A DNA stretch of 64,000 bases from an uncultured Gemmatimonadaceae bacterium (GTDB lineage Bacteria; Gemmatimonadota; Gemmatimonadetes; Gemmatimonadales; Gemmatimonadaceae): contig CAWHHI010000012.1 of assembly GCA_963829055.1 (NCBI GenBank), positions 320,001-384,000 on the forward strand, written 5' to 3'. The first letter of the stretch is position 1, and each line of letters opens with the position of its first letter. This document shows, piece by piece, positions 47,801 through 52,452 of the stretch. The notes under the pieces were generated by a model. It searched no databases, was not told the DNA's origin, and saw nothing but the letters and a program-made list of their open reading frames with translations. The position numbers and the translations under genes were made by a program.

Positions 47801-48009
47801 CAGCACTCGCGAGTGCGGAGTCCACGACTTTGAGACGGCGCCGCTATCATGGCCGGACTTCTGCACTCGGCGAAGTGGGATGACGCGAAGCGCATCTACG
47901 ACATCTACTATGCGCCAATTCCGACGATCACGTAGCTCGCGGTCCACTCGACGTTACGCAGGTCCAGAGCACTAGATCCGCTACCACGCTTGAGCGCAGT
48001 GCGCGCTAG
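44861..48009 (+). CDS. SARP/BTAD-like transcriptional regulator with AAA ATPase and helical C-terminus (many frameshifts)
   Basis: MIRLRALG..ELLDLLWP..LRQALYQL, LDPLNG, LVGRAE, GEAGIGKTRL, LDDAH, NGNPFFL, RHDLI. The C-terminal third is badly fragmented and the end is approximate. Confidence 0.75.
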
Positions 48010-49344
48010 ATCACCTTGGTCGCCAGTTCGCATTCTTGGGCGACGCCGTTCGGCGTACGATCGATAGATTTCAGCCCAGGCTTCGCGTCGTCGACAATGC
48101 GGTCGCAAATCGCCGGGTCGAACTGCCGTCCTCGGAATCGCACGAACTCAGCTTTCGCCTCATCGACGCCAGCGCCTTCCGGTAAGGCCGGTCGGTCGTC
48201 ATCGCATCCAGCGTGTCGGCGAACATGATGATCCGCGATGCCAGCGGGAATCGACTCGCCCTTAATTCCGTCCGGATATCCGGTGCCGTCCCAGTTCTCG
48301 TGGTGATGTACGCACCGCCGGAACGACGTCCTTCGAGACTCGAGAGCAGACCAACGAGCTCGGCACTCCGAATCGGGTGACGCTTCATCATGTCCCACTC
48401 TTCTGGCGTTAGGCGACCCTCTTTCGCCAGAATTGGAGCAAACGCTTCGTCAATTTTTCCAACATCGTGAAGCAGCGCCGCAACGCCTACTCGCTCGACC
48501 TCAGCCGGCCGCAGCCCAATGGCGCTCGCGATGATCTTCGATGCTCGTGAGACGCGTTGGGAGTGGCCGGACGTGTACGGATCGCGCGCTTCGATTGCCG
48601 CGACCATCAGATCGAGCAGTTCTTCGGTGACCTTCGTTAGCTCAACGGTCGTTCGATACAGCTGCCGAACGCCCAGCAACGGGATGACCAGCGCCGCCGC
48701 ACCGCCTGGACCGAGGCCGCTGTAGAGCCACGCTAGGTAGAAGGTCAGAAACGCGGTGAGCGCAATGAATGGAGCAGTCGGCAGCGTGGTCGCCTTCCAG
48801 ATATCGACCACGCTGCGTTGCTGAACGATCGCGACCACGCCGCTGACGGTCGCCGTGTTTACCAGGATGACGCGTCAGCGACCAAGCAGGCCCGACCGAG
48901 CACCAGCTGCGAACGCGCGACGACGAGGAACGACGACCGCTTGGAGCAAGGAAAGACGAGCCACCTGCAGCTCTGTACACAAGTATCGCGAGCGACAGAC
49001 CCAAGTACCATTTGGGCGACGTTGAATAGCGCCCTTGACCCAGTGTCGCTTGCAGAGGATTTGAACCGATGCGCTGCCCACGCCGATTGCGGCAACAGCC
49101 GCCCAAGTCGGGCGCACAAAGCGCAGCCGCAGCGAACGGGATCAGTGAGATCGATCCGGTGCGCGCCCTTCGACGTGCTCATAGCTCAGCATTTCGGCGC
49201 CGACACCGAGAGCAGACAGCATAATAGCGCCGCGTAGAAACTGCGCACGCGTAACGCCGCCGATGCGTCTGTACAGACTACTAAGGCGGCAGCGATCCGG
49301 CGACTAGCGCAAACGATCGCGACGAACGGCAACGCCCGCTGCAT
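48006..49344 (-). CDS. Membrane-bound HD-GYP phosphodiesterase (frameshifted)
   Basis: Multi-TM N-terminus; EARDPYTSGHSQRV, LLHDVGK, HHENWDGTGYPDG, ADTLDAMTTDRPYR and QFDP motifs. Confidence 0.88.
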
Positions 49345-49590
49345 TTCGTTGCCCGAATTCGCACGAGGACGCCGCCGCGTCTCAAACACGCCCTGCCAAG
49401 GGCGCGGCGAGAGTCTCGTTAGGTCATTGCTTGGTCGGCTCACAGGCATTCGTCAGCTGGGCGCGGCTCGTCAGGGTGGAGTCGTGGAGGGCGGCCCTGC
49501 GTCAGGCTGAGGCTATGTCGCGCTACAGAAAGTCGCCCTGGTGGTCGCGAATACATGTTGCGAGTAGACACCGAGGGCCCCGCTCCTCCC

Positions 49591-49638
49591 CTAGATCCAA
49601 CTGATCATCTGGGCCAGGGCAAGGATCCAAGAGATCAT
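49591..49638 (-). CDS. Putative 15-aa micropeptide MISWILALAQMISWI
   Basis: GGGAGGTG RBS 9 nt before ATG ATC TCT TGG ATC CTT GCC CTG GCC CAG ATG ATC AGT TGG ATC TAG. Confidence 0.65.
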   Translation of the reverse strand: MISWILALAQMISWI

Positions 49639-49885
49639 AAAACGCGTCACCTCCCATTCAGTAACGTCATACGCGCTTTTTGGGCGACGTATGCGACTCA
49701 GGTTGGCTCCGCTCGTAGTGCTTACTGGATTTGCCCGCTCAACTCGACTCCGCTCCTTGCGGGAACGGGGGCCGTCTCGGTTGTCGACTTACTTATCTGA
49801 GGATCGCCTCTCGACTCCTATTCCTGAAGTTTGATCTCAGTCGCACCGGCGCAGACACGGCACGACCTGTTCGCTAGTACGTATG

Positions 49886-50725
49886 CTATCGCGTATGCGC
49901 GATCCAGCGGTTCGTCGCATCCAACACGGCCAACACACTCGCCGTCTCGGCGCTTTCCCGGATCTCGCAGCTTCCCGTCAACAAGGCACTCGTCCGCGCC
50001 AGCCGCGCCGTCACACCGACGAACACGAACTCGCGATCGAACGCCTCGATCAGTCGCACGCCATCCAGCGCCAACGCGCGATCACTCGGCTCCGCCAGCG
50101 CCAGCGCCTGTAACGCCGCCCGCGCCGCGAGCTCGATGCGCGATCGCTCGTTCTCCATTCCCTCGGCCTCGCCCACAAAGGACTCGTCGCCCTTCTTGAG
50201 CGTCACGCGACAGGCGATCCCCTTCGCGCGCGACCGGCGCACTTCGACGTCCTCGAAGTAGAGCAGCCGCCCATTCGCGCGCTCCACCTTCACCGGCAGC
50301 GTCGGCGTCACGGGCGCAGCAGCGGCGGCATCCGCCGCCGCCTTCGCCTCACGCTCCTTCGCGGCCTCGCGCAACGCTTCCTTCGATGGTTGCGATTCCA
50401 ACGTTGTCGCCACCGAGATCTTGCGATGGTCGACACGCATGCCGAGATGCGCGATCAACGCGCTCTCGATATTGCGAACCGTCTGCTTCGGTGTGACTTC
50501 CGACGTCGTGAGCACGTGGATCTCATCCACCGCGCCGTTGTCACTCGCGATGATCCGCGCCGCGATCACTCCCGGCAGCGTCGCCAGCAACTCCTCCGCA
50601 CGCCTGATGGGAAGAACGCTGCCAGCTATGAGCGAAGAAGAATGCGGGAGCGGCTGCGGCACAGTCATTCGGGGAGGGGGCGAGGCAGGCCGCGATGCGG
50701 CCCAGTACAACGGCGTGTGTGACAT
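49886..50725 (-). CDS. Conserved-looking two-domain hypothetical protein
   Basis: N-domain EIHVLTTSEVTPKQTVRNIESAL..VDHRKISVA, Ala/Glu/Lys linker, C-domain CRVTLKKGDESFVGEAEG..AARAALQAL..AVLDATNR. Start at 50725 or 50668. Confidence 0.85.
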   Translation of the reverse strand: MSHTPLYWAASRPASPPPRMTVPQPLPHSSSLIAGSVLPIRRAEELLATLPGVIAARIIASDNGAVDEIHVLTTSEVTPKQTVRNIESALIAHLGMRVDHRKISVATTLESQPSKEALREAAKEREAKAAADAAAAAPVTPTLPVKVERANGRLLYFEDVEVRRSRAKGIACRVTLKKGDESFVGEAEGMENERSRIELAARAALQALALAEPSDRALALDGVRLIEAFDREFVFVGVTARLARTSALLTGSCEIRESAETASVLAVLDATNRWIAHTR

Positions 50726-50804: not shown

Positions 50805-52452
50805 GCGCGGAAGTGTCCACAACCAATTGGTATTCTCTAAGCTTCCGGTACAGCGTCCGCTCTCCTATCCCTAACAACTCCGCCGCCTTACGACGATTGC
50901 CGCGCGTCTCTCGCAACGCCGACTCGATGGCCGCGCGCTCGATCTCCGCCATCGTCATCCCCGGCCGAATCGTCACAACGCTCGGAGGGGGCGGCTGGTC
51001 CCGCGGTTCGATGCCCGATGGCGCCAAACGGAGCGCCGGACGACACGTCCGCCGGCCATACCGGGCCGCGCCCAGGACCGAGTGCCGGGGTTTGCGCCGG
51101 GCCGGGCATCGTGCGGTCGATCACTTCGATCGGTGGTCCGAGGACACTACTCGCCGCGCGCGTCAGCTGCTCGCGCGCCATGCGCTCTTCACCGAGTTGC
51201 CGGCGGAGCTCCTCGACCTGGAGCTTGAGCTCGACGAGACTCCGCACGATGAACTCCAACTCCCGCCCCTCGACGCCGGAGCGCTCGCGAACGATCGGCC
51301 CGACATGGACGGGAAGAAATCGTGCCGTCCCGCCCTCACGAATCTGACGCGGGATGTCGGCCGGGCCGATCTCGCGTCCGGGCGCGAGCACCACCATGCT
51401 CTCCACCAGATTGCGCAGCTCGCGCACGTTTCCCGGCCACGCATACTGTACGAGCTTGTCGAGCGCCTCCGGAGAGATGCCCTTGAACGGGCGATCGTGC
51501 TGACGCGACAGCTCGGTGATGAACTGCCTGACGAGTATCGGAATGTCCTCACGCCGTTCGCGCAGCGGCGGGAGATAGATGCTCAGCACGTTCAACCGGT
51601 AGTAGAGGTCAGCGCGAAACCTCCCCTCCTCGATCCCGTCGCGCAGCGGATTGTTCGTCGCCGCGATCGACACGCACATCGACGGGAATGGTCTGCGTGC
51701 CACCGACGCGCGTGATCTCGCGCTCCTCGAGCACGCGCAACAGCTTCACCTGCGTCGCGAGCGGCACGTCGCCGATCTCGTCGAGAAAGATCGTGCCGGT
51801 ATTCGCAAGCTCGAAGCGACCGATGCGTCGCTCGGTCGGCGCCGGTGAACGAGCCCTTCTCGTGTCCGAACAGCTCACTCTCGAGTAGCGTGTCCGGCAG
51901 CGCCCCGACGTTCACGGCGATGAACGGCTTCGACCGTCGTGGACTGAGCCGATGAATCGCTCGCGCAACCAGCTCCTTGCCCGTTCCGCTCTCGCCCTCG
52001 ATGAGCACCGTGCTGGATACCGGCGCGATCTGCTCGACCTTCACGAGCACTTCGCGGATGGCTTCCGACTGTCCGATCAGTCCCGTTAGGCGCGACAGCC
52101 GCCGCCGATCGAGCAGTCGCCGAATCGCGTCGACCACCTCGTCGACCACGATCGGCTTCGGATACACCTCCACGAAACCGATCGCGCGCAGCCGTTCATC
52201 GATCTCGGGATCGCGGACGTCCGCCAGCCCAACGACGGCCACACCTTCCCACAGCATCTCCCGAACGAGCGCGACGTTCTGCGGATCGACGAGCGCTCCA
52301 GTCATGACAATGACGTCGGGCTGCTCACGTCGGATGGCGCCGCGGACGTCGTCGAGTGGAGATACCACCGCGGTCTCCACACCGGATGCCTCGAGTTGGG
52401 CGTTGAGGCGAACCGCAGGTTCGACGTCGGTCAGACTAATCAGGACTTTCAC
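50797..52452 (-). CDS. Sigma54-dependent Fis-family activator with atypical receiver (frameshifts)
   Basis: [45 protein letters not shown]-terminal [21 protein letters not shown]. Confidence 0.92.

Follow-up and report, generated by a model that had tools for sequence, protein, structure and literature searches.

To our knowledge, only a handful of termination-arrest peptides are known. Among structured RNAs, the Downstream-peptide (glutamine-II) motif is a riboswitch that precedes a short open reading frame (ORF), and in attenuation of the ermC, cat and secM/mifM kind a ribosome on a leader ORF opens a helix that masks the start of the next gene. In TnaC, SpeFL, MsrDL and PepNL the penultimate residue of the peptide blocks accommodation of the release factor GGQ loop (PMC11890864). 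In TnaC a Trp is followed four residues later by an Asp and twelve residues later by a Pro, the last residue before the stop codon, and an aromatic residue at its penultimate position (R23F) clashes with methyl-Gln252 of release factor 2 (RF2), stalling then being ~30 times more sensitive (PMC8429421). Here we describe an upstream ORF (uORF) on the minus strand of a 64,000-nucleotide (nt) stretch of an uncultured Gemmatimonadaceae bacterium (contig CAWHHI010000012.1; this whole stretch is hereafter the window, numbered from its first letter). The uORF is contained in a leader RNA in front of a gene for a membrane protein with MASE9-type and HD-GYP domains. From sequence comparison we are highly confident that it is genuine, conserved and translated, and that the structured leader in which it lies is new. 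On balance it is probable that it encodes a regulatory leader peptide and that the leader, specific to Gemmatimonadaceae, would control the following MASE9/HD-GYP gene through the opening of a long-range helix, P1. The element would work most like leader-peptide attenuation combined with a termination-arrest peptide and is a member of none of those families.

In the window the uORF is preceded by a Shine-Dalgarno sequence (SD; GGGAGGTG, 49655..49648) and a 9-nt spacer (ACGCGTTTT, 49647..49639), and runs from an ATG at 49638..49636 through 15 codons (ATG ATC TCT TGG ATC CTT GCC CTG GCC CAG ATG ATC AGT TGG ATC) to a TAG at 49593..49591. The original prediction, which had read MISWI-LALAQ-MISWI-stop behind an SD and a 9-nt spacer, gave these coordinates exactly and left the strand, minus, unstated; its remark that the two Ser codons differ (TCT and AGT) also agrees with the sequence. 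Two same-genus genomes with the locus retain the uORF as MISWLLALAQLISWN and MISWLLALASLISWN, with the synonymous changes ATC>ATT, GCC>GCA/GCG and AGT>AGC. The uORF has the appearance of a real coding micro-ORF that is invisible to gene callers.

A DNA search with positions 49350-49900 (minus strand) over 41 related genomes matched 7, the window's own included, and the more distant genera matched chiefly over the ~130 nt upstream of the uORF. From 7 sequences of this block, one of them from the unpublished genome G013, we built a covariance model, R1. With the family identified from record titles, R1 places the element in 93 of 151 Gemmatimonadaceae genomes and in 55 of 77 genera, usually as one copy each, with one match in G000; the unpublished genome G055 contributes solely to this tally. 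Among the carriers is a metagenome-assembled genome labelled Gemmatimonas aurantiaca (L109). In a sample of the phylum 21 of 31 Gemmatimonadaceae genomes were positive, as against none of 119 genomes from 11 other families, with the reservation that weak matches may escape the stricter filters applied to large sets. An Rfam 15 search of 48800-50100 on both strands at E <= 10 returned nothing that matches the element; the sole match was sX9 (14.7 bits against a gathering score of 44, E 9.4) at 49437-49499, outside it. Likewise, our literature search, which had most subscription journals outside its reach, found no such element for Gemmatimonadota or upstream of HD-GYP genes.

The 116 loci recovered reduce to 108 distinct ones, from which 13 were dropped because under 100 nt of DNA followed and no ORF was complete, leaving 95. 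A uORF was called at the first ATG, GTG or TTG no more than 14 nt after the R1 match that opens an ORF of at least 10 amino acids (aa). An equivalent uORF is present in all 95 loci, which bears out the expectation, set down with the original prediction, of an equivalent ORF at orthologous positions. Its start lies 0-5 nt after a GACGC motif in every case (3 nt in 65) and is ATG in 80 loci, GTG in 13 and TTG in 2, whilst the encoded peptides are 15-38 aa long, with peaks at 16-18 and 23. Two of these loci, L010 (G013) and L033 (G056), come from unpublished genomes; without such genomes 93 loci remain, 89 of them with Trp at position -2, and the conclusions are unchanged. The same arrangement at 95/95 evaluable loci, from many genera and many independent assemblies, refutes a chance ORF or an artefact of noisy long-read assembly. 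The frame-broken genes that adjoin the element in this assembly speak for such an artefact, to which we nevertheless give next to no credence.

The one near-invariant feature of the peptides is at their C-terminus. Trp is the penultimate residue in 90 of the 95, and in a C-anchored profile it is the sole conserved residue; the last residue is of 15 kinds, never Pro, and the stop codon is free as well (43 TAG, 31 TAA, 21 TGA). The distance from the stop to the C of a downstream CGGGG core, which is part of P1, varies from -1 to 30 nt (median 8, 89 loci), and therefore the Trp codon is tied to the stop codon and not to the RNA helix. A conserved Trp is thus found as in TnaC (PMC8429421), and the position that is decisive against the release factor in termination-arrest peptides, the penultimate one, is the position conserved here (PMC8429421, PMC11890864). 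As in TnaC-type peptides, the uORF peptide would at termination be lodged entirely within the exit tunnel, and by analogy with TnaC, SpeFL, PepNL and MsrDL a short leader ORF would act through a ribosome held at its own stop. The differences from TnaC are nevertheless considerable. Its Trp12, Asp16 and C-terminal Pro24, as given in PMC8429421, are missing from the 95-peptide profile; all three stop codons are used; the uORF is embedded in a large conserved RNA fold; and the gene downstream is not tnaA or tnaB. Instead, an ORF of ~440-500 aa follows the element in orthologous loci, with an HD_5 domain downstream in 31/31 loci found by the RNA model alone (MASE9 in 13) and HD_5 or HD in 5/5 downstream proteins tested (MASE9 in 2).

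Substitutions within the uORF point to selection on the peptide. Among 45 nearest-neighbour pairs with equal-length ORFs, codon positions 1, 2 and 3 carry 202, 146 and 267 substitutions, and changed codons are synonymous in 131 cases and non-synonymous in 270, compared with 72/327 and 46/348 in the other two frames. We consider this a coding signature of moderate, not overwhelming, strength; it is only moderate because the RNA fold constrains the sequence too. The internal repeat seen in the window recurs, at the peptide level, in the short-peptide clade. In 38 peptides with one Trp within the first seven residues and another at -2, the residue preceding both is identical in 16 (S/S, T/T, Q/Q, N/N), whereas shuffles give 6.2 +/- 2.0 and none of 2000 reaches 16; 9 of the 16 encode the repeated residue with different codons. 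This statistic is not clean, since related genomes share ancestry. The idea that conservation acts on the peptide and not on the DNA, first drawn from the two Ser codons of the window, is thus upheld by the third-position bias, the synonymous excess, the Trp-X-stop pattern with any stop codon and the differently encoded repeats.

The peptides are hydrophobic throughout (L 15.5%, A 10.6%, W 9.4% and F 7.5%, with 0.3% Pro and few charged residues) and have aromatics near both ends. They might be read as acting in trans, either as a membrane partner or modulator of the MASE9 domain or as a secreted Trp-containing signal, with the RNA only tuning synthesis. The likeness of the N-proximal and C-terminal x-W motifs, with its differing codons, and the strict synteny with a membrane protein are consistent with this. 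However, a hydrophobic span that crosses a membrane is ~20 aa long and 41 of the 95 peptides have 15-18 aa; their lengths differ, their sequences are poorly conserved save for the penultimate Trp, and the surrounding RNA is better conserved than the peptide. A Pfam-A scan of the 29 orthologous peptides of 20-31 aa left 28 without a match at E <= 10, the other (L059) giving two weak transmembrane-type matches (E 0.09 and 0.11). Type I toxins have an antisense RNA and often occur in several copies, whereas this element is present once per genome and is strictly syntenic with HD-GYP, a difference that, with the short peptides, sets it apart from type I toxins and small membrane proteins. Moreover, no gene for processing, modification or export is syntenic, the neighbours being a 279-aa hypothetical gene and the HD-GYP gene. 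A peptide acting in trans therefore seems unlikely to us. Of the three functions first suggested for the micro-ORF, the leader peptide is strengthened (it lies in a switch-like RNA, always before HD-GYP, with its penultimate Trp tied to the stop), the small membrane modulator is weakened by the short lengths and low conservation, and the precursor of a signalling peptide finds no modifying enzyme or exporter in the neighbourhood.

The structured RNA around the uORF had been overlooked in the original prediction, which placed the micro-ORF in an otherwise empty ~540-base-pair (bp) gap. That description does not hold, as the leader RNA fills 49786..49566 and the rest is the broken 5′ part of the HD-GYP gene; the gap looks larger than it really is because HD-GYP is frame-broken in this assembly. 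The leader is a ~220-nt, Gemmatimonadaceae-specific, switch-like RNA whose 5′ domain (49775..49644) is the top R1 match, at 130.1 bits. We folded 7 seed sequences singly and obtained consensus folds from the 7 and from 42 full-length sequences (RNAalifold); helices P1, P4 and P5 are common to the single-sequence and both consensus folds. In P4, predicted in 7/7 single-sequence folds and interrupted by two internal loops with G/A mismatches, GCGGAGCCAACC pairs with GGGAGGUGACGC, such that the strong SD of the uORF (GGGAGGUG) is predicted to be paired inside this near-invariant helix. Over 72 aligned sequences 93.6% of cells can pair; shuffles reach 84.1%, and a shift of the partners by 1-3 columns lowers the figure to 37-46%. 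P5, which caps P4, has compensatory changes at all 9 of its pairs in these sequences, whilst in P4 pairing reaches 99.0% and 99.7% of cells and one CG>UA exchange is seen in 5 sequences.

P1 closes the leader. Its duplex in the window has a computed energy of -36.9 kcal/mol, and the mean over loci is -33.2 kcal/mol when each 5′ strand is matched with its own 3′ strand, as against -26.7 for 3′ strands taken from other loci and -17.9 for shuffled ones. Its length is 12 to >20 bp. When the strands of 89 loci are aligned without gaps, starting from the G of CCCCCG and the C of CGGGGG, positions k=1-4 are C-G in 89/89, and covarying pairs flank them (k=0 GC68/AT6/TA5/GT3; k=6 AT33/GC22/CG13; k=7 GC31/AT29). 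In addition, a pyrimidine tract after the G-run is able to pair with a purine tract before the C-run. The same C-run also has a local partner in helix P2, of which 87.9% of cells are paired over the 72 sequences and in which the G of CCCCCG covaries locally (GC55/UA5/UG2). Where the 5′ motif is CCCCCU, the local partner is GGAGG and the distal partner AGGGGG or UGGGGG. Because P1 and P2 share the same C-run they are mutually exclusive, and together they would form a two-state switch.

We also considered that the leader is mainly a riboswitch, a protein-binding RNA or a stable dual-function small RNA, with the uORF a mere expression platform and its peptide sequence irrelevant. The highly conserved core with its G/A internal loops holding the SD, the repeated GAGCGG motifs and the conserved neighbour protein, whose fold resembles an amino-acid-binding regulatory domain, would all suit such a role, as would discrete RNA-library contigs of 174-217 nt over the leader. 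Those contigs stem from three RNA-library runs of one study and match locus L119 (G072), with its element at 1501-1629 and uORF at 1497-1426 on the minus strand, without a difference (1405-1621, 217 nt; 1425-1620, 196 nt; 1470-1643, 174 nt); a 151-nt contig from a second study (1562-1712, 1 difference) covers part of the same leader. They show presence in RNA libraries, which may contain DNA, and not ends, strand or level. They did not extend over the genes flanking L119, a lack of cover that proves nothing and on which we base no claim that the leader RNA is separate or more abundant. Against a role of the RNA alone, an in-frame Trp at -2 with a free last residue and a free stop is inexplicable by RNA pairing alone, the substitution pattern is coding-like, no known RNA family matches and no ligand is indicated. 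We regard it as very unlikely. The Downstream-peptide motif resembles our element in that a structured, conserved RNA holds the SD of a very short ORF; unlike that motif, the element has no Rfam match, keeps the uORF inside the fold with a conserved coding feature of its own, and has no known ligand.

The position of P1 relative to the two ORFs suggests how it might act. The median distance from the uORF stop to the P1 3′ strand is 0 nt over 53 loci, and the stop codon is often paired. Among 81 loci with a long ORF downstream, 53, picked by hand, have an in-frame HD-GYP ATG 21-50 nt after the uORF stop. The end of the G-run is a median of 14 nt from this ATG (51 loci; 2 more have no G-run) and P1 is ~7-20 nt from the start codon in most loci, so that P1 is predicted to overlie the ribosome-binding region of the HD-GYP gene in those 53 loci. 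We also tried extending P1 to the HD-GYP ATG and rejected the result, as pairs were added across large loops and the figures for its end relative to the ATG are unreliable. Nor is the uORF an N-terminal extension of HD-GYP reached by readthrough: the distance from stop to ATG is a multiple of 3 in 16 of 53 loci, about what chance gives.

We therefore favour, as probable on balance, a leader peptide that would act through P1. With the uORF untranslated, P1 would form and mask the HD-GYP translation start, and where a U-tract follows P1, as in a minority of loci, P1 may terminate transcription as well. A ribosome at the uORF stop would unwind inner P1, cover the CGGGG core and free the HD-GYP start, after which the C-run could fall back on P2. 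Toeprinting and footprinting show that some twelve downstream bases are shielded by a ribosome whose A site holds a stop codon, and thus inner P1, including the CGGGG core (median +8), would stay open. By analogy, the penultimate Trp would slow peptide release, and Trp-X-stop would prolong the stay of the ribosome at the stop codon, possibly in response to a small molecule detected within the exit tunnel. P4 would set how often the uORF is initiated, and a ligand or protein may act there. A more elaborate form of this scheme, which we hold to be doubtful, is a hitherto undescribed two-input sensor. Here a new riboswitch-like aptamer, the SD helix with its G/A loops, would gate uORF initiation, and Trp-X-stop would define a new class of ligand-responsive termination-arrest peptide that might sense free tryptophan, indole or a ribosome-targeting compound, the two together setting the level of a cyclic-di-GMP phosphodiesterase throughout the family.

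As in ermC, cat and secM/mifM attenuation, a ribosome on the leader ORF is proposed to open a helix that masks the start of the next gene, and the predicted P1 would fit this in the 53 loci above, where its 3′ strand lies between uORF stop and HD-GYP ATG; in the clade of the window that ATG is ~85-160 nt away. Unlike the local hairpins of those systems, the proposed masking helix is long-range, spanning ~190 nt; the ribosome is presumed to pause at the stop codon; the SD of the uORF itself is also sequestered; and no antibiotic or secretion signal is known for this leader.

The leader also resembles trpL and its relatives, where a short, hydrophobic, Trp-containing peptide is encoded amid alternative RNA pairings, and the size and hydrophobic character of the uORF peptides recall known trp leader peptides. 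This raises the alternative that it is the codon UGG that matters and not the residue. Scarce charged tRNA-Trp would then stall the ribosome at UGG, two codons before the stop, the top of P1 would open and HD-GYP expression would rise, linking amino-acid supply to cyclic-di-GMP turnover as trpL-type leaders do for trp operons. The peptides are rich in Trp (still 4.8% outside position -2), many have 2-4 Trp, P1 and P2 are mutually exclusive and, since Trp has a single codon, sequence cannot separate codon from residue. However, trpL has tandem regulatory codons, whereas here one universal UGG is fixed beside the stop and not to the helix (the last two residues are WW in 8 of the 95 peptides). 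Downstream there is no amino-acid biosynthesis operon, for tryptophan or otherwise, no Rfam leader matches, and a U-tract follows P1 in 13 of 89 loci. Moreover, a ribosome paused at UGG would reach just the first few bases of the P1 3′ strand. An attenuator that responds to Trp starvation is, in our estimate, quite unlikely.

Several points weigh against the leader peptide acting through P1. First, the penultimate Trp is missing from 5 of the 95 peptides, which end in ...QILH (L010, L015), ...VSW-stop (L074), ...WIWAT (L131) and ...WISIGS (L133), and, as related genomes are not independent, the counts overstate the number of independent events. Second, in the remaining loci, mostly with peptides of 15-18 aa and including the window, the uORF stop and the first in-frame HD-GYP start are ~85-160 nt apart (in the window ~117 nt separate this start from P1), and with such a long spacer P1 cannot mask the HD-GYP start directly in this clade. 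A U-tract (at least 6 T in 9 nt after the G-run) being confined to those 13 loci, P1 as a general intrinsic terminator was rejected as well. Third, parts of the fold are less secure: P4 is almost invariant and covariation neither supports nor refutes it, P1 beyond ~12 bp has no fixed register (the ungapped register is lost past k=7) and the duplex program over-extends it with large loops. A further pairing, P3, between uORF codons 2-8 and the segment after GAGCGGG is unsupported (matched -13.3, mismatched -12.6, shuffled -12.0 kcal/mol). Lastly, the analogy for Trp-X-stop draws on E. coli peptides, the uniform hydrophobicity would suit a membrane peptide too, and we infer translation of the uORF and its regulatory role from sequence and predicted fold. 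If the frame break in the HD-GYP gene is real, the leader in this genome would serve a dead gene.

Gemmatimonadaceae are abundant in soil and water and very little of their gene regulation has been worked out. The leader offers a well-defined, family-wide element, putatively cis-regulatory, with ~100 natural variants, which would link translation of a tiny ORF to cyclic-di-GMP signalling. Trp-X-stop is a simple and strongly conserved rule that can be tested directly for its effect on peptide release. If the proposal is true, an arrest peptide defined by a single penultimate residue and nested in an RNA switch would be of interest to both the ribosome and the riboswitch fields. The features of the locus are collected in Table 1.

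Table 1. Features of the leader and its flanking genes in the window, with the evidence for each.
Feature	Position	Strand	Evidence
Whole leader RNA element, from P1 5′ strand to P1 3′ strand, containing the uORF	49566..49786	-	R1, P1 duplex fold, consensus folds
uORF, MISWILALAQMISWI + TAG (predicted coding)	49591..49638	-	sequence reading, conservation, codon-level substitution pattern
Penultimate Trp codon UGG (W14)	49597..49599	-	Trp at -2 in 90/95 distinct loci
GGGAGGUGACGC, SD of the uORF and P4 3′ strand	49644..49655	-	invariant in 7 seeds, nearly so in 72
P1 5′ strand, core CCCCCG at 49771..49766	49760..49786	-	duplex with 49591..49566, covariation, RNAalifold
P1 3′ strand GGGAGGAGCGGGGCCCUCGGUGUC, begins at 49591, last base of the uORF stop TAG	49566..49591	-	duplex fold, covariation, RNAalifold
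P2 local helix, CCCG-UUC (49769..49763) with GAG-CGGG (49740..49734)	49734..49769	-	model helix 1
P4 5′ strand GCGGAGCCAACC, anti-SD	49701..49712	-	pairs with 49655..49644
P5 hairpin capping P4, GUCGCAUACG...CGUAUGAC	49666..49697	-	9/9 pairs with compensatory changes
Gene for MASE9-type membrane domain + HD-GYP (HD_5)	48006..49449	-	HD_5 matches in two ORF pieces, different frames
Conserved 279-aa hypothetical gene, directly upstream of the leader	49886..50725	-	element just downstream in 72/80 loci

By family assignment, the gene served would be a cyclic-di-GMP phosphodiesterase. The nearest NCBIfam model for the downstream protein is a family of these enzymes, matched well below its cut-off. 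In the window its start is most likely the ATG at 49449 (MPVSRPSNDLTRLSPRPW; MPVSRPSNDLTRLSPRPWQGVFE...), which matches the G002 orthologue. The frame from this ATG meets a stop after 87 codons, and tblastn with three orthologues continues at 49267..48170 in another frame with in-frame stops and at 48344..48084 in a third. A sigma-54-dependent activator gene (50888..52452) is likewise split over frames, and L124 (G079), from another few-contig assembly, also has no intact downstream ORF; G000 comprises 20 contigs with 85.9% completeness. The breaks in the HD-GYP and activator genes may be either long-read indel error or real decay.

Several further observations concern the leader itself. An overlapping 44-aa ORF at 49523..49657 was rejected, its ATG lying within the SD context GAAUGGGAGG, a context that other genera lack. 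A second perfect SD-like sequence, GGGAGGAG, stands right after the uORF stop (49581-49590), forms part of the P1 3′ strand and has no start codon at SD distance. The 48-nt uORF of the window contains 4 GATC sites (49594-49635) that are absent from the same-genus orthologues and are probably incidental. A scan of 49300-50000 for sigma-70 promoters found no site, and the single "terminator-like" site from a scan of the same region is part of P4 and the SD, hence not a terminator. Upstream, four GAG triplets at 2-nt spacing (GAG CG GAG UC GAG UU GAG CGGG) lie on the minus strand at 49734-49756, a spacing that recalls repeat sites bound by proteins. The hexamer GAGCGG occurs three times in the leader, and other genera retain only two or three motifs.

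The 279-aa protein, whose gene immediately precedes the leader, belongs to no Pfam or NCBIfam family. Modelled from Met20 (49886-50668) with AlphaFold2 it forms two domains (mean pLDDT 80.0), and its C-terminal half resembles the amino-acid-binding regulatory domain of LeuA/citramalate synthase (Foldseek E 4e-5, TMq 0.34). Given that its gene invariably adjoins the leader, the protein could serve either the RNA or the HD-GYP protein as a ligand-binding partner. Of 80 loci retrieved with this protein, the 72 with an R1 match have it on the strand of the gene and just downstream. Five of the other 8 have at most 147 nt of downstream DNA, whilst L079, L082 and L090 show no R1 match in the 3 kb downstream of the gene. 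About 470 nt after the gene, L090 reads ...TGGGAGGTGAGGCGA ATG ATG GAC TTT CTG..., which looks like a divergent SD and start.

Second copies of the element were considered in two genomes and rejected in both. In G014 the double match comes from two contigs with a 127-nt overlap. The second match in G093 is cut by the 5′ end of its stretch and its locus ends 21 nt after the match, so that it has the look of a fragment from the end of a contig. G100 and G157 also gave double matches. Short-read contigs very often end in or just after the element (L004/L008 of G014, L022, L028, L121 and L126). This is so for 16 of the 72 matches next to the 279-aa gene, 4 of which are cut at their 3′ end and 12 of which are complete with at most 126 nt of downstream DNA, and the overlap of the two G014 contigs, exactly 127 nt, runs across the element. 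Assembly graphs probably branch there because co-occurring strains share the element much more closely than they share the sequence on either side of it.

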